Part shown: positions 19,457 through 39,664 of the stretch, piece after piece
Numbering within the stretch: the stretch's first letter is position 1
Layout of the letters: each line of letters starts with the position of its first letter
Origin: a virus
Lineage: Duplodnaviria; Heunggongvirae; Uroviricota; Caudoviricetes
DNA length: 39,664 nt
Virus record (IMG/VR): IMGVR_UViG_2563366953_000005
Span: 1-39,664 of that record
Strand: one strand, 5' to 3'
Notes under the pieces: generated by a model
What the model saw: only the letters and a program-made list of their open reading frames with translations
Database searches by the model: none
Told to the model about the DNA's origin: nothing
Program-made: the position numbers and the translations under genes

Positions 19457-19801
19457 TTACACGCCCAGTTCTTTACGCTTATCTGCGATCTTCTCGCGGA
19501 GCGTTTCGGCTTTGGCGTTATGGTGTGGCTTCTCGTTAAAGAGCAATTCGTACTCTTCACGGAGCTTATCCAGCTCACCATCATCTGACACATCGTTGAT
19601 GATTTTGGTACTGGTTGCTGCCATTGACACCTTTCCTGCTACCTTTGCTTTTGCCTGTCTGGCTGCATCGTTAACAGGTTCCAGTGCGCTACCAGGCTCA
19701 CCTTCGTATTCGATTTCTGCCCCCTCCGGCCACAGAGTGTTATGGATATGAGAGAGGCGCAGAACGCGGTATCTTGGTTTCTCACCTGACATCGATATCA
19801 C
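19457..19801 (-). CDS. Small structural/assembly protein
   Basis: 114 aa; ORF in structural operon, no recognisable motif. Confidence 0.35.
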   Translation of the reverse strand: MISMSGEKPRYRVLRLSHIHNTLWPEGAEIEYEGEPGSALEPVNDAARQAKAKVAGKVSMAATSTKIINDVSDDGELDKLREEYELLFNEKPHHNAKAETLREKIADKRKELGV

Positions 19802-19802
19802 C

Positions 19803-20240
19803 TTAACCAGTTACTTTTGAGCGGATCGGATACGGCGTATTGGCATCAACATCAAGACTGATACCAGCAGTGAATTCGCCAGCCGTTAGTGGGCCAGTTG
19901 CGACGGAGTAGTTAACACGCAGATATCGCTGAACACCGGCAGGCACCTTTGCAGAAACAACTCGTTTACCTGCTGTAAGGGCGGTCTTTGCCAGTGCACC
20001 ACTATCATAAATAGTGGTCCATGAGCTGTTATTATCACTCGTCTGCAACTGGATGTTTACAGTTGCCTCACCACTTGCCGTGGCGGCTTCGTTAACCAGC
20101 GCCCAAAACTCAAGCGGGTAACCCACGCCGATATCACGACGTTTTCCGTCAATTGGACCGAGATCGATTACGTCAGTAGAAGCCGCGGTATTCGTAACCG
20201 CCTGAGCTTCGGAGAACATCAACAGTTTGTCGGTGATCAT
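19803..20240 (-). CDS. Capsid accessory/decoration protein candidate
   Basis: 145 aa; immediately downstream of the major capsid gene; Thr/Ala/Val-rich beta-type composition. Confidence 0.4.
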   Translation of the reverse strand: MITDKLLMFSEAQAVTNTAASTDVIDLGPIDGKRRDIGVGYPLEFWALVNEAATASGEATVNIQLQTSDNNSSWTTIYDSGALAKTALTAGKRVVSAKVPAGVQRYLRVNYSVATGPLTAGEFTAGISLDVDANTPYPIRSKVTG

Positions 20241-24252: not shown

Positions 24253-24289
24253 TTGACATTTAATGCACTAATTATTACCTTTCAGGTAA
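24253..24289 (+). promoter_or_regulatory. Sigma70-like promoter with overlapping operator
   Basis: TTGACA at 24253-24258; operator-type palindrome TTACCTTTCAGGTAA at 24275-24289 overlapping the -10 region; points toward the tRNA unit. Confidence 0.45.
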
Positions 24290-24611: not shown

Positions 24612-24688
24612 GTGGCATTAGCTCAGTTGGACAGAGCAACCGCCTTCTAAGCGGTTGGTCGCAGGTTCGAATCCTGCATGCCACGCCA
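24612..24688 (+). tRNA. tRNA-Arg (anticodon UCU)
   Basis: 77 nt; 7-bp acceptor stem GTGGCAT/ATGCCAC, D-arm GCTC-AGTTGGACA-GAGC, anticodon stem ACCGC/GCGGT with loop CTTCTAA (anticodon TCT), T-arm GCAGG-TTCGAAT-CCTGC, discriminator G and encoded CCA. Confidence 0.85.
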
Positions 24689-24886: not shown

Positions 24887-25243
24887 ATGAACGACCAGCA
24901 AATCGAAAAAGAAATCGTTGAGAAAGGCCAAACCGCTCCGCGAGTTACGCCTCAATATATCGAAAGCATCATTCTTGAAGAGCATTTCTTTACTGCTTAT
25001 GACGGCATTCGTGCTGCCAATATGGGCGTTGGCGATTCATGGACAGCGCATAAATCTACAGACCTCCTGACTTTCTGCGTACTGGTGCTGAAGAATGGCT
25101 TCACCGTCACCGGAGAGAGCGCCTGTGCAAGCCCGGAAAACTTTGATGCAGAAATTGGTCGGAAGATTGCCCGGCAGAATGCTGTAAACAAAATCTGGAC
25201 GCTCGAAGGTTACTTGCTGAAGCAGAAGCTAAGCGAGCAATAA
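24887..25243 (+). CDS. Orphan small phage protein of unknown function
   Basis: 118 aa; ATG with strong SD aaggtgag; plus-strand gene between terL and the tRNA, antisense to the late operon; followed by a terminator. Confidence 0.6.
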   Translation: MNDQQIEKEIVEKGQTAPRVTPQYIESIILEEHFFTAYDGIRAANMGVGDSWTAHKSTDLLTFCVLVLKNGFTVTGESACASPENFDAEIGRKIARQNAVNKIWTLEGYLLKQKLSEQ

Positions 25244-26809: not shown

Positions 26810-27402
26810 TGATTACCACCCTGGCGTTCTTTGAGTCGCTTCCTGGCTGCTGCTATGCGATCTGCAATTGTCACATTCACATTAACATCCAGGCGTTCTT
26901 TAAACGCGTTAACATCAACATGCTTACCAATCAGCTCAAGGTTCTTCACCTTGTCAGGCCATTTAATTTTTTTGAGGATTGTCTCTATCGAATCCTCGTT
27001 CATGTTCATGATGGTCGATGACAGATCAAAGCCGCTAAGCGTAGTGCGCCATATTTTCGGCCACTCGCGGATTGGCTTAAGGCTCCCATCGTCGTTGAGG
27101 ATGTCGATCACGTCCATCTGGTCGATCTCCACCAGGCGCATAAGAACGTAATCGGCACTGACGCGCATTCGTTTGTTGCGTTCCTCCATTAGCTCGGCAA
27201 TCCGTTTCTGAATGCGTTCATCGCGCATCATAACACTGGCTTTAACTGCCGCTGTATTTGGAGAGAATCCTGCGTTAATCGCTGCCTGAGTCTGGTTTTC
27301 AGGCGTTTTGATGTATGACTGGCAATAAGCCTCCTGCATTGCTGTTAGTGGCTTAAATTGCGTTGATTTGCGTTTATAGGTTTTAGGTTCAGCAGGCATC
27401 AT
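26806..27402 (-). CDS. Terminase small subunit
   Basis: About 198 aa from the ATG at 27402 (the track ORF starts at an upstream TTG at 27480); HTH-like N-terminal region (TQAAINAGFSPNTAAVKASVMM) typical of small terminase subunits; exact start uncertain. Confidence 0.65.
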   Translation of the reverse strand: MMPAEPKTYKRKSTQFKPLTAMQEAYCQSYIKTPENQTQAAINAGFSPNTAAVKASVMMRDERIQKRIAELMEERNKRMRVSADYVLMRLVEIDQMDVIDILNDDGSLKPIREWPKIWRTTLSGFDLSSTIMNMNEDSIETILKKIKWPDKVKNLELIGKHVDVNAFKERLDVNVNVTIADRIAAARKRLKERQGGNQ

Positions 27403-27434
27403 AACCACCGTGGTAATAGTTACCATTGTGGTAA
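27402..27434. promoter_or_regulatory. Tandem operator-like palindromes at the terS start
   Basis: TAACCACCGTGGTAA (27402-27416) and TTACCATTGTGGTAA (27420-27434), both of TTACC-N5-GGTAA type. Confidence 0.4.
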
Positions 27435-30938: not shown

Positions 30939-31283
30939 TCAGAACTCTTCGATGTTCCAGCCACCACCTGCTTTCTTTGGTTTAACCGTTACCCCGATGA
31001 TTCGGAACGGATACTGATCTGCGGCGACTTTGGTTTTCACCCTGGCGTCGTCGGTCCAGAAACCTTTCACTTCGTGCAGTTCCATCTCTCCGGTGGCGAG
31101 CATCACAGCGAAATCGGGCGTATAGAACGTGTTATCAGCTAACCGCAGCTTGATACCCTCGAATCGATACCAGGCGATTTCCCCTGCACGTTTACGCAGC
31201 TCAAGGTGCTGGCAATACGCAGATTCTGTTTTGTTCATCTGGCCTGTTTTGAGTCGACCAAGAGCCTGTATCTGTTTTCTCAT
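30939..31283 (-). CDS. Small PD-(D/E)XK-like protein (DUF1064-like)
   Basis: 114 aa; YTPDF ... ELHEVKG motif; its RBS (gaggt) coincides with an operator-type palindrome. Confidence 0.45.
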   Translation of the reverse strand: MRKQIQALGRLKTGQMNKTESAYCQHLELRKRAGEIAWYRFEGIKLRLADNTFYTPDFAVMLATGEMELHEVKGFWTDDARVKTKVAADQYPFRIIGVTVKPKKAGGGWNIEEF

Positions 31284-31286
31284 GAT

Positions 31287-31363
31287 TTACCTCTGAGGTA
31301 ATTAAAAACCACATAAGACACTAGATCAATAGATTTTAGAATATTTTATTACCCGACAGGTAA
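31287..31363. promoter_or_regulatory. Pair of operator-like palindromes in the P-to-nin intergenic region
   Basis: TTACCTCTGAGGTAA (31287-31301) and TTACCCGACAGGTAA (31349-31363) separated by AT-rich sequence. Confidence 0.45.
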
Positions 31364-33013: not shown

Positions 33014-33214
33014 TCAGCTTGAATGTTGTGGGGAGGAATTAATCATGATCTGCTTAATCTCTGCCCTGATACGACGGTTTGATTCCATGGTGCACTCAAC
33101 ACAGTGTCCGTTGTAAACCCAGCGTTCACTGTCATGTCCGTGCTTACATGGTTTTCCGGTGTAGTAGCGTTTAAGTCCGCGCTTTGCGGCATCAATACGT
33201 GTAATGATTTCCAT
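33014..33214 (-). CDS. Small zinc-binding protein (CII-position gene)
   Basis: 66 aa from the ATG at 33214; motif CKHGH ... CVEC; sits between the Cro-like gene and the O-like gene. Confidence 0.4.
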   Translation of the reverse strand: MEIITRIDAAKRGLKRYYTGKPCKHGHDSERWVYNGHCVECTMESNRRIRAEIKQIMINSSPQHSS

Positions 33215-33293: not shown

Positions 33294-33308
33294 TTACCTT
33301 TGAGGTAC
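33294..33308. promoter_or_regulatory. Operator-like palindrome TTACCTTTGAGGTAC
   Basis: One mismatch from TTACC-N5-GGTAA. Confidence 0.4.
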
Positions 33309-33323
33309 GAATAGATATGAAAA

Positions 33324-33343
33324 GACCGCCGGGTGGCGGTCTA
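33324..33343 (-). terminator. tR1-like terminator downstream of the Cro-like gene
   Basis: agaccgcc-gggt-ggcggtct 8-bp stem; on the minus strand it is followed by tttcatatct. Confidence 0.45.
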
Positions 33344-33363: not shown

Positions 33364-33594
33364 TCATGAGTAGAAGAAGTATGCCAGTTCTGCTTTTGAG
33401 CGCAGCCATTGTCTTGTTTTACAGGCTTTAAAAAGCCCATTCATCAATACTTTACCTGGCATTTTGCGCTTACCTGTTAAGTGAGTCTGGATATAGTGAC
33501 TCGTCGTTCCGGCTTCCTGTGCGAAGGCTTCACGCTCATCCGGAGTAAGTGCAAGCCAGTGCTTTTTGAAATCGAAATGTCCGTTATCGCTCAT
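33364..33594 (-). CDS. Cro-like HTH regulator
   Basis: 76 aa; HTH-like segment LTPDEREAFAQEAGTTSHYIQ; divergently transcribed from the repressor-like gene across the operator cluster. Confidence 0.55.
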   Translation of the reverse strand: MSDNGHFDFKKHWLALTPDEREAFAQEAGTTSHYIQTHLTGKRKMPGKVLMNGLFKACKTRQWLRSKAELAYFFYS

Positions 33595-33630
33595 AGCTAT
33601 TGCCTGATATTTATTTCAGATAATAAATAT

Positions 33631-33693
33631 TCACCCATAAGGTAACAAAAATCAAGGATAGTTACCTGTGGGGTGCATTTACCTGTTGGGTAA
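33631..33693. promoter_or_regulatory. Immunity-region operator cluster (three TTACC-N5-GGTAA-type sites)
   Basis: TCACCCATAAGGTAA (33631-33645, 1 mismatch), TTACCTGTGGGGTGC (33662-33676, 2 mismatches), TTACCTGTTGGGTAA (33679-33693, perfect), between divergent Cro-like and repressor-like genes. Confidence 0.55.
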
Positions 33694-33748
33694 TATTGCT
33701 TTAAATTGAATCATCTACTGATTCATATATGAGGCGATTTTCCAGAAA

Positions 33749-34333
33749 ATGAAAAGTATCCAGGACGTCCGCAGGCAAAATCTCAACGACTTGATCGACC
33801 GTGAATTCAATGGTGTTCAGACGCGGATGGCAGAAAAACTTGGAACTCAGGCAAATCTGGTAAACCGCTGGGCTCTTGGCAAGAAGGTTATCGGCGACCA
33901 GGTTGCGCGAAAAATTGAAGCTGCCGCCAATAAACCCCGTAACTGGCTTGATATCGATCGCTCGCTTTCTCAGGAAGGTTTTCAGCCTGTCGGCCCAAGC
34001 GACATTGGTCAGCTGGCGGCTCACAACCTGGAACGCTGGATGAGCGAAAGCCGCGACCTTTCAACGCAGGGAAAACTTCACCGCGCATCCGGCGTCGCCC
34101 AGGTGACAATCAGTCGCCTGTTAAACAATGAGGTCAGCGTTTCCATTTCCACCCTGGAGAATGTTGCATCCGCATTCGGGCGTCACGGATATGAACTACT
34201 GATTCACCCGCACGACCCTGCGACTATCAACTATGACCGCTCACGCTACGCATTGTTACCCGAAACCGAGAAAGCAAAGATCGAAAGTTACATTGAATTT
34301 GTCATCAACCAGAACGAAAAAAGCAAACAATAA
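33749..34333 (+). CDS. Prophage repressor-like protein with two HTH-like regions and no recognisable S24 peptidase domain
   Basis: 194 aa; N-terminal HTH (TRMAEKLGTQANLVNRWALGKKVIGDQVARKIE) and a second HTH-like segment (LHRASGVAQVTISRLLNNE); no Ala-Gly/GDSM/Lys signature of LexA-type autocleavage; position equivalent to cI. Confidence 0.55.
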   Translation: MKSIQDVRRQNLNDLIDREFNGVQTRMAEKLGTQANLVNRWALGKKVIGDQVARKIEAAANKPRNWLDIDRSLSQEGFQPVGPSDIGQLAAHNLERWMSESRDLSTQGKLHRASGVAQVTISRLLNNEVSVSISTLENVASAFGRHGYELLIHPHDPATINYDRSRYALLPETEKAKIESYIEFVINQNEKSKQ

Positions 34334-34390
34334 AACTATATTTTTCAGTAAGTAAGCCGCCTCATGGCGGCTTTTTTATTGCCAGATAGA

Positions 34391-34467
34391 TTACCTTACG
34401 GGTAATTTTTTTAACTCATATCTATTGACACCAAACCAAATAAGCATAATTATTACCTCAACGGTAA
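34391..34467 (+). promoter_or_regulatory. PL-like promoter with two operators
   Basis: TTACCTTACGGGTAA (34391-34405), TTGACA (34425-34430), TTACCTCAACGGTAA (34453-34467) overlapping the -10/+1 region; drives the rightward recombination operon. Confidence 0.5.
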
Positions 34468-34641: not shown

Positions 34642-34941
34642 ATGAACGTTAATCAGCAGAAAAATCTTCAAAAAATCATGCTGGCATTCGACAAGGACTA
34701 CCGCCTGTCAGAACAGCTATATGACCGACAAGTTGAACTGATTGAGAGCATCCGACTTCATCAACTGTCCTCAACTTTCGACGTTGTAACAGGCAAAGGC
34801 GTTCGTCATGAAGTGCTGGAGGCTGCTAAAGACAGCCCTGAGTTCGAAGAACTGATGGATGCCTACCGGCGCGAGGCAATGGCAATTATAGCGCGCTGGG
34901 ATCTGGCGGATCAGCTTGATGGGCAGAGGGACGCGGCATGA
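34642..34941 (+). CDS. Hypothetical early protein
   Basis: 99 aa from the ATG at 34642 with SD gggaggg; ATGA overlap with the downstream exonuclease gene. Confidence 0.45.
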   Translation: MNVNQQKNLQKIMLAFDKDYRLSEQLYDRQVELIESIRLHQLSSTFDVVTGKGVRHEVLEAAKDSPEFEELMDAYRREAMAIIARWDLADQLDGQRDAA

Positions 34942-35837
34942 TGCGGAACGCTGGAATCATGGATAGAACAAAATACATCGGAGGAAGCGATGTTGCAGGG
35001 ATTCTTGGAATTAGCCCATGGCGCACCCCGCTTGAGGTTTATCTGGATAAGGTCCAGCCACGTGTCAAACCAGTAGACCCAAGCAAGCAGAAAGTTTTCA
35101 CGCGTGGCCAGCGTATGGAGCCATACGTAATAGACCTGCTTTCTGAGGAAACAGGGATGGAAATCGTTCATCGCGGAAACCGCTATATCCACCGTGATTA
35201 CGATTTTATTGCAGCTGAGATCGATGCAGAAGCAGCGTCAGGCGAGAACATTGAGATCAAAACAGTTAGTCCGTTCAAAGCCAAAGAATGGGGAGAAATC
35301 CAGACAGATGCAATTCCTGTGCATTACACGGCCCAGGCCATGCACGGGTTGATGGTTACAAACAAACAGGTATGCGTTTTCGGTGTGCTTATCGGTGGCG
35401 ACGACTTCCGAATCTATCGGGTTGAGCGTGATGAAGAAACTATCCAGGCGATCTTAGAAAAAGAAATCGCTTTCTGGGACCGAGTGAAAAATCTTAACCC
35501 GCCGGAAGCTGCCAGCGTAAGCGATGTATCGCTGATGTTTGAGAAAGATGCCGGGACAAGTATCGAGGCTGACGGAAAGGCACTCGCACTATTCAACGAT
35601 CTACGAGACATGAAATCACGCAGAAAATCACTGGAAGAAGAAATAGCTATATCAGAAGAGAAGCTGAAGATGTACATGCAAGAGCACTCAGTCCTGACCC
35701 TGGACGGAAAGCCGCTCTGCACATGGAAATCTCAGATCAGCAACAGATTCGACCAGAAGCTATTCCAGTCAGTACACCCTGAGTTATTCGAAAAATTCAA
35801 AACAACAACGACACAACGCGTCTTCAGAATGAAGTAA
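34938..35837 (+). CDS. YqaJ-type viral recombinase exonuclease (lambda Exo-like)
   Basis: 299 aa; N-terminal GGSDVAGILGISPWRTPLEVY motif characteristic of the YqaJ family; paired with a RecT gene. Confidence 0.8.
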   Translation: MMRNAGIMDRTKYIGGSDVAGILGISPWRTPLEVYLDKVQPRVKPVDPSKQKVFTRGQRMEPYVIDLLSEETGMEIVHRGNRYIHRDYDFIAAEIDAEAASGENIEIKTVSPFKAKEWGEIQTDAIPVHYTAQAMHGLMVTNKQVCVFGVLIGGDDFRIYRVERDEETIQAILEKEIAFWDRVKNLNPPEAASVSDVSLMFEKDAGTSIEADGKALALFNDLRDMKSRRKSLEEEIAISEEKLKMYMQEHSVLTLDGKPLCTWKSQISNRFDQKLFQSVHPELFEKFKTTTTQRVFRMK

Positions 35838-35846
35838 GGAGAAAAA

Positions 35847-36869
35847 ATGTCTATCAATGCACTTAAGGCAGCGGCTACCGGTAACCAAGTTGCACATCAT
35901 AATGAGAAACCAACAACTCTGGCCGGACTTCTGGCAGACCCAAAAATTAAAGCTCAGATGGCTTTGGCACTTCCAAAGCACATGACAGCAGACCGTCTGG
36001 CGCGCATAGCAACCACAGAGATCCGAAAGGTTCCAAAACTTGCATCATGCGACCAAGCCAGCTTCCTGGGGGCAATTATGCAATGTGCCCAATTGGGTCT
36101 TGAACCAGGCGGAGCTCTTGGACACGCTTACCTGATACCGTTCGACAAACGCCAGAAAGTAAATGGAAGATGGGAAACCGTATCTACAGAAGCACAGCTG
36201 ATTATCGGCTATCGCGGAATGATTGACCTTGCCCGCCGCTCTGGGCAGATCCTGAGTATCTCGGCTCGTACCGTACATACAAACGACAAATTCAGCTACT
36301 CATACGGCCTGGAAGAAACGCTCGAGCATTTACCTTGCGAAACAGGTGACCGCGGAGAATTAACGCACGTTTACGCCGTTGCACGACTGAAAGATGGCGG
36401 AGTCCAATTTGAAGTTATGAGCCGGGCAGACATTGAGAAAGTTCGTGCACTGAGCAAAGCCGGTAGCAGTGGCCCATGGGTTGATCACTTCGATGAGATG
36501 GCTAAAAAAACAGTAATTCGCCGACTATTCAAATATCTTCCTGTTTCTATTGAAATGCAGAAGGCTGTTGTTATGGATGAGCGCGCTGAAGCTGGACTTA
36601 GCCAAGATAACGCAGCTGTTATCACTGGTGAATATTCCGTAGTTGACGATGAGCGTCAACACCTGTCGCCAATTTCAGATTCAGAACGAGAAGAAGCTCG
36701 AGAATATATCATCGCGATACTTAATAGCCTGGATCCATCTGCTGAAGATGCAAAAACGATGTTCAAGCGCGCTGAAAATGAGATTAACACCATGGCTGAA
36801 AAGCTCGGTGATGAATATCACCAAAAATTCATGATGACGCTTAACGATATGCGTCCAGAATTCGAGTAA
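35847..36869 (+). CDS. RecT-family single-strand annealing protein
   Basis: 340 aa; core region LGLEPGGALGHAYLIPF...IIGYRGMIDLARRSGQI typical of RecT/Bet-type recombinases; acidic C-terminal tail. Confidence 0.8.
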   Translation: MSINALKAAATGNQVAHHNEKPTTLAGLLADPKIKAQMALALPKHMTADRLARIATTEIRKVPKLASCDQASFLGAIMQCAQLGLEPGGALGHAYLIPFDKRQKVNGRWETVSTEAQLIIGYRGMIDLARRSGQILSISARTVHTNDKFSYSYGLEETLEHLPCETGDRGELTHVYAVARLKDGGVQFEVMSRADIEKVRALSKAGSSGPWVDHFDEMAKKTVIRRLFKYLPVSIEMQKAVVMDERAEAGLSQDNAAVITGEYSVVDDERQHLSPISDSEREEAREYIIAILNSLDPSAEDAKTMFKRAENEINTMAEKLGDEYHQKFMMTLNDMRPEFE

Positions 36870-38413: not shown

Positions 38414-39664
38414 TTATTCCCCCGCCATCCACTTCTCAAACTTCGACGGGGAGAACGGAATCAGATCCGTATGCTCCCCGTTAATCCAGGAATCAATCAT
38501 ATCGGCCCACTGCTGCAACATGTAGGCGCGCTGTCTGGCGTATTCCGCTTTGTTATATACGGCGCGCACACCTTTCTGCTCATGTGCCAGAGCCTTTTCA
38601 ATCCAGTCTGAAGGATAACCAGCCTCATGCAACAACGTACTGGCTGTACGGCGCATATCGTGTACGGTGAAGCCCTGAATATGCCCACCATCTTCATTTA
38701 TTATTTTCACCGTTCTGTCGATCAGAGAGTTCAGCGCGGCATTAGATAATGGCTTCCGGAAATTGTAACGACCAGGAACCAGATATTCACTTCCACCAGC
38801 GCACATCTGCAACCCAACCAATATATCCTGTGCCTGTTTAGGCAGGTAAATAACGTGCGACCGGCTTCCCTTCATGCGGTCTGAAGGAATTGTCCATGTC
38901 CATTTTTTAAAATCTATTTCATCCCACGTTGCATTGGTGAATTCGCCTTTACGAACCATAGTGATAAGCACCAGCTTTAAAGCCATTTTCATAGTTCCCA
39001 TAGCACCAATGGCATCCAGCGTGCGGAAGAACAGGCCAATTTCTTCTGGTGTCAGTGTTCGCTCTCGTGGTTTAAATATGGCGATAGACGAAGGTTTAAT
39101 GTCAGCCGCAGGATTAAACAAACCATGACCACGGTCATTGGCGTGACGGTATACGCTGCTGATGATCTCCCTGGCCTGTACTGCTGTTGCCCGACCACCG
39201 CGTTCGACAATCCGGTCACACAAATCACGAACCATCGATGTGGTAATTTCAGCCATCATTTTGTTGCCAAGAACCGGAAGTATGTCACGGTCGATCACCG
39301 CCTGCTTCATTGCGCGGGTACTGTCAGCCAGGATAACGTGTTTCATATAACTGTCGGTATGTACCGCAAACGTCTCGGCACCACGAATCTTTTTGATACC
39401 GTCACGTTTAGCCGCAGCCGGTGACTGGCCTGCTTTAAGCAGCTTCTTTGCAGCAATCAGTTCTTCCCGCGCTTCTGCCAGGCTGATACCGTCACGCCCA
39501 TACTGCCCGATTACCAGTGTTTCGCGGCGACCGTTGATACGGTAGTCATAGCGAAACGAGACCGTGCCTGACGTAAGCACAGCTACATACAGCCCGTCAC
39601 GATCGGAGACCTTGTACAGTTTGTCCTGCGGCTTGAGGTTTTTTAATTTTGTATCGGTAAGCAC
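38414..39664 (-). CDS. int: Tyrosine integrase (P4-like arm-binding N-terminus); 5' end at window edge
   Basis: 416 codons; N-terminus LTDTKLKNLKP typical of P4-type integrases; C-terminal catalytic region with HDMRRTASTLL (H-x-x-R) and downstream Tyr (AVYNKAEY); first codon in window is GTG at 39662-39664, so the true start may be at or beyond the edge. Confidence 0.85.
   Translation of the reverse strand: MLTDTKLKNLKPQDKLYKVSDRDGLYVAVLTSGTVSFRYDYRINGRRETLVIGQYGRDGISLAEAREELIAAKKLLKAGQSPAAAKRDGIKKIRGAETFAVHTDSYMKHVILADSTRAMKQAVIDRDILPVLGNKMMAEITTSMVRDLCDRIVERGGRATAVQAREIISSVYRHANDRGHGLFNPAADIKPSSIAIFKPRERTLTPEEIGLFFRTLDAIGAMGTMKMALKLVLITMVRKGEFTNATWDEIDFKKWTWTIPSDRMKGSRSHVIYLPKQAQDILVGLQMCAGGSEYLVPGRYNFRKPLSNAALNSLIDRTVKIINEDGGHIQGFTVHDMRRTASTLLHEAGYPSDWIEKALAHEQKGVRAVYNKAEYARQRAYMLQQWADMIDSWINGEHTDLIPFSPSKFEKWMAGE

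Follow-up and report, generated by a model that had tools for sequence, protein, structure and literature searches.

The 39,664-nucleotide stretch of viral DNA analysed here (IMG/VR record IMGVR_UViG_2563366953_000005; hereafter the window) very probably carries the lysis-lysogeny switch of a phiV10-type phage of the genus Uetakevirus, made up of a repressor (Rep), a Cro-like protein and a small antirepressor (Ant) and working as the switch of phage SPC32H does. The evidence consists of sequence features, homologies, the conservation of operators and of a LexA box, and the absence of an S24 peptidase domain, all of which were observed directly. Tetramer formation, Ant binding and non-cleavage are in this phage expected by homology to SPC32H. 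An earlier note, made from the sequence of the window alone, had described a 194-residue plus-strand protein divergent from a 76-residue one, and both open reading frames (ORFs) are borne out by the ORF listing. The features on which the argument turns are the following.

33749 to 34333, plus strand: rep, lysogeny repressor of 194 residues (ORF listing and homology to 5D50_A)
33364 to 33594, minus strand: Cro-like small regulator of 76 residues, first gene of the rightward early operon, divergent from rep
7748 to 8005, plus strand: ant, antirepressor of 85 residues, between tailspike and virion genes, as is ant of SPC32H
7709 to 7728: LexA (SOS) box, TACTGTATATTTATACAGTT, with core CTGTATATTTATACAG at 7711 to 7726, just upstream of the ant ribosome-binding site
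7657 to 7671: Rep operator in the tailspike/ant intergenic region, TTACCTTTCAGGTAA, about 50 base pairs (bp) upstream of the LexA box

In the proposed mechanism, the N-terminal helix-turn-helix (HTH) of Rep would bind 15- to 17-bp palindromes of the form ATTACC-N5-GGTAAT in the lysogen, the second HTH-like region would dimerise, and a C-terminal beta-strand/helix module would join dimers into a tetramer, one of which could hold two operators. Rep would sit on operators between rep and cro (three), around the leftward early promoter (two) and at several other promoter regions, so that the whole lytic programme would be shut down. Without a peptidase domain, Rep would stay uncleaved, and host LexA would occupy the SOS box of the ant promoter, some 26 kb from the immunity region. 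Upon DNA damage, RecA-stimulated self-cleavage of LexA would allow Ant to be made, and Ant would bind the C-terminal part of Rep, break the tetramer and thereby take Rep off the DNA. The early promoters would then fire and the Cro-like protein would probably lock the lytic state.

The model for this mechanism is the Salmonella phage SPC32H (Kim & Ryu 2013 J Virol; Kim et al. 2016 PNAS; PDB 5D50 and 5D4Z), where genetic and crystallographic work has already resolved the switch and whose Rep and Ant are homologous to those of the window. For SPC32H, a published account (PMC7380047) states that self-cleavage of LexA is followed by production of Ant, which inactivates the repressor through protein-protein interaction. 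Parts of a second account (PMC9638917) describe SPC32H Rep as binding DNA as a tetramer in which DNA-binding pairs come from different dimers, and tetrameric Ant as binding two Rep dimers and breaking the Rep tetramer.

Repressor architecture

A phmmer search aligned residues 1-190 of Rep with residues 2-197 of PDB 5D50 chain A ('Repressor', SPC32H) at an E value of 3.5e-42, and 5D4Z, which holds Rep 92-198, was matched as well. Global identity between the two repressors is 43.8% (52% in the N-terminal domain, 33% in the middle and 50% in the C-terminal part) and the alignment is collinear, with gaps confined to the linker. Pfam HTH_3 matched two stretches of Rep, the better one at residues 106-147 (E 1.2e-9; 38.5 bits against a cutoff of 23). 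Further, a YdaS/Cro-type HTH was seen below threshold at residues 21-61, and PHROG repressor families matched residues 1-76 with E values of 1e-10 to 1e-11. The two HTH-like regions of the earlier note are both recovered in these Pfam and PHROG searches, whereas the second of them is by homology a dimerisation domain, as set out below.

For SPC32H Rep, sections of PMC9986798 give the domain order as an N-terminal DNA-binding domain, a middle dimerisation domain (MDD) and a C-terminal CAD (p53-like 'TetDloop'), the last of which forms the tetramer and binds Ant, with Phe187 and Phe190 at the tetramer interface. By homology, Rep of the window would consist of an HTH DNA-binding domain (about residues 1-75), a linker, an HTH_3-like dimerisation domain (about residues 90-150) and a tetramerisation and Ant-binding part (about residues 151-194), in which Tyr181 and Phe184 correspond, by alignment only, to Phe187 and Phe190 of SPC32H Rep. 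Given the SPC32H domain map, the second HTH-like segment most likely represents the MDD, a protein-protein module and not a second DNA reader. It is highly unlikely that the segment is a genuine second DNA-binding domain, one that would let Rep recognise two types of target or allow a single Rep chain to contact a palindrome as a pseudo-dimer. Although this is the region that clears the Pfam HTH_3 threshold, the equivalent SPC32H domain is described in the same sections of PMC9986798 as serving dimerisation, with DNA binding assigned to the N-terminal domain. Moreover, only one type of half-site occurs in the operators, which are symmetric palindromes, and the two HTH regions lack mutual similarity. 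An internal duplication as the origin of the two regions was also considered and rejected, no alignment between them being obtained at E values of up to 100.

To gauge conservation, five Rep homologues were aligned that come from phages of E. coli, Salmonella, Enterobacter and Klebsiella. The NLVNRW stretch of the putative recognition helix (residues 36-41) is invariant in all five, and a second cluster of invariant residues lies towards the C-terminus (Y162, D163, Y167, L170, P171, E174, K175, K177, I178, I182 and F184).

Peptidase_S24 was not matched by Rep in a search kept permissive for a hidden domain (Pfam E ≤ 1, NCBIfam E ≤ 0.1), and Ala-Gly, Cys-Gly and GDSM are all absent from the Rep sequence. 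Rep consequently falls outside the S24 type, taken as an S24 domain with a Ser/Lys dyad together with an Ala-Gly or Cys-Gly site. The profile search for Peptidase_S24 and HTH domains that had been suggested in the earlier note therefore returned HTH and no S24, and the note's reading of the sequence, with no Ala-Gly site, GDSM motif or other S24 features, holds.

RecA-stimulated self-cleavage of Rep in the manner of lambda CI or LexA would require a cryptic or highly diverged peptidase region. It would account for the inducibility of a near-identical phage, vB_EcoP_ZX5 (hereafter ZX5), whose lysogen responds to mitomycin C with an increase from about 1e7 to 1e9 plaque-forming units (PMC9782041); taken alone, however, this response fits self-cleavage or an antirepressor. 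We regard self-cleavage as extremely improbable, as neither an S24 match at the permissive thresholds nor any of the short motifs was found and as the C-terminal half of Rep aligns with the solved Rep 92-198, that is, with the dimerisation and tetramerisation domains, which leaves no room for an S24 fold of about 110 residues. SPC32H Rep reportedly stays uncleaved in the SOS response, and alteration of one base in the SPC32H LexA box is said to make Ant constitutive.

That the protein acts as a lysogeny repressor is in agreement with data on the ZX5 repressor, which is 99.5% identical to Rep of the window: its overexpression eliminated free phage and reduced endolysin transcripts by 99.99% and holin transcripts by 99.97% (PMC9782041). 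Prophages of the phiV10 species were induced 21- to 47-fold by microcin Mcc1229, which was grouped with DNA-damaging bacteriocins (bioRxiv 10.64898/2026.05.26.727859).

Operators and early promoters

The whole window was scanned for TTACC-N5-GGTAA with at most one mismatch, using 100 shuffled sequences as control. Twelve operator-like palindromes were found where 0.84 were expected, and none of the 100 shuffles reached this number. All 12 fall into the roughly 7.5% of the window that is non-coding (binomial P about 5e-12), and they are not restricted to the rep/cro locus. The window, phiV10 and SPC32H all have the half-site ATTACC/GGTAAT, in keeping with the invariant NLVNRW recognition helix. 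A dispersed operator network of this kind was considered as a new finding and rejected as such, since the epsilon15 RefSeq record holds 'protein_bind: repressor' features at equivalent positions. Sites, promoter regions and terminators outside the ant region are listed here.

33631 to 33645: operator in the rep/cro intergenic region, TCACCCATAAGGTAA, one mismatch, in the spacer of the cro-side promoter-like site
33661 to 33675: degenerate middle operator, TTACCTGTGGGGTGC, with a degenerate right arm, read from the sequence and positioned as the SPC32H middle operator
33679 to 33693: perfect operator nearest rep, TTACCTGTTGGGTAA
34391 to 34467, plus strand: leftward early promoter region (PL-like), TTGACA (34425-34430), 17 nucleotides, AATTAT (34448-34453), with operators on both sides
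31287 to 31301 and 31349 to 31363: operator pair with a distance of 62 bp, lying after the replication genes and before the DUF1064 gene
27402 to 27434: two neighbouring operator-like sites a short way upstream of the small terminase gene
24275 to 24289: operator upstream of the virion-gene operon, adjoining a TTGACA hexamer (operator and hexamer together 24253-24289)
3169 to 3183: weak operator-like site, one mismatch, between the lysis cassette and the O-antigen acyltransferase gene
33294 to 33308: operator-like site, one mismatch, just downstream of the cro terminator, with a phiV10 equivalent at 33112
33323 to 33342, minus strand: intrinsic terminator after the cro-like gene, also annotated in phiV10
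34354 to 34373, plus strand: intrinsic terminator after rep, also annotated in phiV10

Between rep and cro, the three operator-type palindromes anticipated in the earlier note are present at 33631, 33661 and 33679, with a spacing of 30 + 18 bp compared with 30 + 17 bp in SPC32H. The operator at 33679-33693 probably overlaps the rep promoter, as judged from the sequence. On the cro side, a promoter-like site TTGTTA-17-TATTAT (-35 at 33648-33643, -10 at 33625-33620) carries the 33631 operator in its spacer.

Operators at 34391-34405 and 34453-34467 flank the PL-like promoter; their centres are separated by 62 bp, about six helical turns. Pairs with this 62-bp distance recur at both equivalent loci of the related phages (phiV10 31953/32015 and 35070/35132; SPC32H 33604/33666 and 35972/36034). 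This suggests that one Rep tetramer clamps the promoter between two sites on the same helix face, and a tetramer that holds two operators would fit the 62-bp geometry. The operator at 31287-31301, one half of the second pair in the window, directly adjoins the start codon of the gene for the DUF1064 protein (30939-31283, minus strand), and its GAGGTAA arm likely doubles as the ribosome-binding site of this gene. Sites with one mismatch equivalent to that at 3169-3183 also occur in phiV10 and SPC32H.

The Cro-like protein matched phrog_35 ('transcriptional repressor') with an E value of 5.6e-13 and is 76.3% identical to SPC32H_042; no solved or curated family was found for it in Pfam, NCBIfam or PDB searches. 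Its position and size fit the Cro type, and its resemblance to the N-terminal HTH of Rep is weak (tblastn E 2.5).

The antirepressor gene and its control region

Ant aligned with PDB 5D50 chain E ('Anti-repressor protein') at an E value of 1.6e-46 (residues 2-83 against 3-84; 87.1% identity) and had no above-threshold match to any Pfam or NCBIfam family. Upstream of ant, 18 of the 20 positions of the box TACTGTATATTTATACAGTT agree with what we take to be the LexA consensus, making it a near-consensus site for which LexA binding is predicted from the sequence.

We aligned the tailspike/ant intergenic DNA of six phages from four host genera (the window, phiV10, SPC32H, epsilon15, Tyrion and Klebsiella phage BUCT711). 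Islands of conservation in otherwise variable DNA comprise an ATTCTATTACC...AACC element, the operator over its whole length, GCTGGATAG, the LexA box, and the ribosome-binding site GGAG together with the ATG. Five of the six phages keep the LexA box, the Klebsiella phage having a degenerate version with ATGT for CTGT. Both half-sites of the operator at 7657-7671 are likewise invariant in five of six, phiV10 having one mismatch, and epsilon15 has a 'protein_bind repressor' annotation at the corresponding site. The outermost island, ATTCTATTACC-N7-AACC at 7605-7619, is invariant in all six phages, lies about 50 bp from the ant-proximal operator and contains one operator half-site only; it could be an element of the tailspike promoter or a half-operator.

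The earlier note had held the 7748-8005 gene to be LexA-controlled and had linked it to an induction that does not proceed via RecA-stimulated self-cleavage of the repressor. The core CTGTATATTTATACAG upstream of the gene supports the first point, with LexA binding predicted. The second is supported by the homology to SPC32H Rep and Ant, synteny, the operators and the LexA box taken together.

Some observations weigh against the SPC32H-like switch proposed here. A simple consensus scan gave no strong sigma-70 promoter at ant; a weak one, TGGATA-17 nucleotides-TACTGT, would overlap the LexA box, and we infer the overlap of box and promoter from position and from SPC32H. The mechanism in this phage, like the function of the small Ant of phiV10-type phages, is carried over by homology. 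Further, the middle and C-terminal domains of Rep are only 33% and 50% identical to those of SPC32H Rep while Ant is 87% identical; with the docking domains this far apart, Ant-Rep binding in this phage is to be read as a prediction.

The same divergence in the Ant-binding region of Rep is what would favour a different inducer. The 7748-8005 protein would then have another SOS-linked function, and derepression would be brought about by some other factor such as a Bro-N/KilA-type antirepressor or by dilution or proteolysis of Rep. The authors of the ZX5 study indeed assigned the anti-repressor role to a Bro-N protein, overexpression of which lowered lysogeny (PMC9782041). Nevertheless, the window contains no Bro-N gene and no second copy of ant, the 35 phage records with Ant and the 37 with Rep are essentially the same ones, the LexA box is conserved across host genera, and the invariant residues of Rep cluster in its C-terminal module. 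We therefore consider a different inducer very improbable and retain Ant as the predicted inactivator of Rep.

The Bro-N 'antirepressor' of phiV10 (19646-20230, minus strand) shows a short stretch of similarity to Ant: its residues 150-180 are 45% identical to Ant residues 2-32 (7748-7843 of the window), with a pairwise E value of 9e-7. The two or three Ant 'places' seen in other phage records arise because Bro-N of phiV10-type phages carries this Ant-like motif. The phiV10 Bro-N, of the type named ORF4 anti-repressor in ZX5, may dock on Rep as Ant does. Since the C-terminus of Bro-N in phiV10 and ZX5 mimics Ant residues 2-32, the protein could reach the same surface of Rep by another route that does not depend on LexA.

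As a tentative extension, which we put forward as possible but doubtful, ant or the divergent tailspike promoter would be locked twice, by LexA and by Rep, Ant would act across immunity groups, and Bro-N would serve as a second route. The double lock is prompted by the conserved Rep operator about 50 bp upstream of the LexA box and would, if real, create positive feedback once Ant appears. As Ant is conserved at 87% and Rep at 44%, a single Ant might induce heteroimmune Uetakevirus prophages in E. coli, Salmonella and Enterobacter.

Related switches, spread and remaining genome

The window as a whole represents an E. coli phage of the phiV10/epsilon15 type (genus Uetakevirus, epsilon15 group) and is about 98% identical to Escherichia phage phiV10 around the immunity region. 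The 194-residue repressor is 99.5% identical to phiV10 gp40, as it is to the repressor of ZX5, and 100% identical to that of phage HEMP4. Gene order corresponds to SPC32H, with virion genes, ant and tailspike and, further on, recombination genes, rep, the cro-like gene and replication genes; rep and ant are named in that phage. The two phages also share the half-site, the three rep/cro operators, the 62-bp pair at the leftward promoter and the LexA box before ant. They differ in Rep, with an identity of only 44%, in the host, E. coli for the window, and in the operator centres, which are less A/T-rich in the window; the biochemistry is that of SPC32H only. SPC32H Ant reportedly acts by tetramer disassembly and not by competition for the DNA-binding surface.

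The nearest relatives of the switch are found in phiV10 (gp40/gp24), epsilon15 (gp38/gp19) and ZX5 (ORF21 repressor), and much of it was known beforehand: phiV10 gp40 is already annotated as 'putative transcriptional repressor; two helix-turn-helix motifs', dispersed operators are recorded in epsilon15, whose RefSeq record cites 5d50_A for the repressor, and the ZX5 repressor has been tested functionally. In all three records, however, the small Ant homologue is still a 'hypothetical protein', and the 'anti-repressor' of the ZX5 paper is the Bro-N protein, with the small Ant homologue left unnamed (PMC9782041). This extra Bro-N 'anti-repressor' is carried by phiV10 and ZX5, in contrast to the window.

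The same logic is followed by 186 Tum, the Gifsy-1/-3 and Fels-1 antirepressors and N15 AntC, a resemblance that is functional only: in the relevant passages of PMC7380047, a non-cleavable repressor is combined with an SOS box on a small, distant antirepressor gene and inactivated by protein-protein contact. The SPC32H type differs from these systems in the architecture of Rep and in the mode of Ant, which as described in parts of PMC9638917 is tetramer disassembly via the C-terminal domain. With lambda CI and LexA-type repressors, the window shares an N-terminal HTH, divergent repressor and cro genes, multiple operators and, by homology, cooperative or looped binding by higher oligomers. Unlike them, Rep lacks an S24 domain and a cleavage site, and SOS sensing would run via host LexA and Ant. 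Sections of PMC9986798 further compare SPC32H Rep with Rco/Rap of the Bacillus plasmid pLS20 and the TetDloop of p53, all of which combine N-terminal DNA binding with C-terminal beta-strand/helix tetramerisation and two distant sites; the likeness to pLS20 Rco and p53, stated there for SPC32H Rep, is structural only and comes without sequence homology.

The rep-cro immunity region is present at an identity of at least 95% in 540 of 5,426 complete E. coli genomes (about 10%), nearly always chromosomal and in single copy. Rep is labelled only 'helix-turn-helix domain-containing protein' in these genomes, and the Ant homologue is a 'hypothetical protein' in most phage records. The practical value of the present analysis lies in this annotation gap, while the mechanism itself adds nothing new. 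Transfer of the SPC32H annotation would explain how these prophages, including those of O157 and avian pathogenic E. coli (APEC) strains, are SOS-inducible without a cleavable repressor, and it would flag ant and its LexA box as the determinant of the spontaneous induction rate.

The window is a complete phage genome, circularly permuted and in reversed orientation relative to the phiV10 record. The circular permutation follows from the integrase ORF (38414-39664), the start codon of which appears, from its length compared with phiV10, to coincide with the final base of the window. The attP core ATTGAGTGGGAATGATT, given for phage ZX5 as the guaA 3'-end site, occurs in the window as a single copy at 1150-1166. 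The interval from the integrase start to the attP core holds two ORFs on the plus strand, one for a TraT-like protein with a glycine zipper (1-516) and one for a DUF5384 protein (532-1059, E 2.6e-58), and both look like lysogenic-conversion cargo.

The acyltransferase ORF near the lysis cassette, 3134(3218)-5152, encodes a fusion of acyltransferase-3 and SGNH that is about twice as long as phiV10 Oac and nearer in length to the SPC32H/Tyrion type; it is likely an O-antigen acetylase for serotype conversion. Translation probably begins at the ATG at 3218, so that the operator-like site at 3169 is intergenic. A tRNA-Arg (anticodon TCT; 24612-24688, plus strand) adjoins an Sf6 gene-66-like ORF (24887-25243), and SPC32H has a tRNA-Arg at the equivalent place. 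Finally, a RecE-like exonuclease (34938-35837) and a RecT-like annealing protein (35847-36869) are encoded by separate ORFs, as in epsilon15, whereas phiV10 is annotated with one fused RecET gene.

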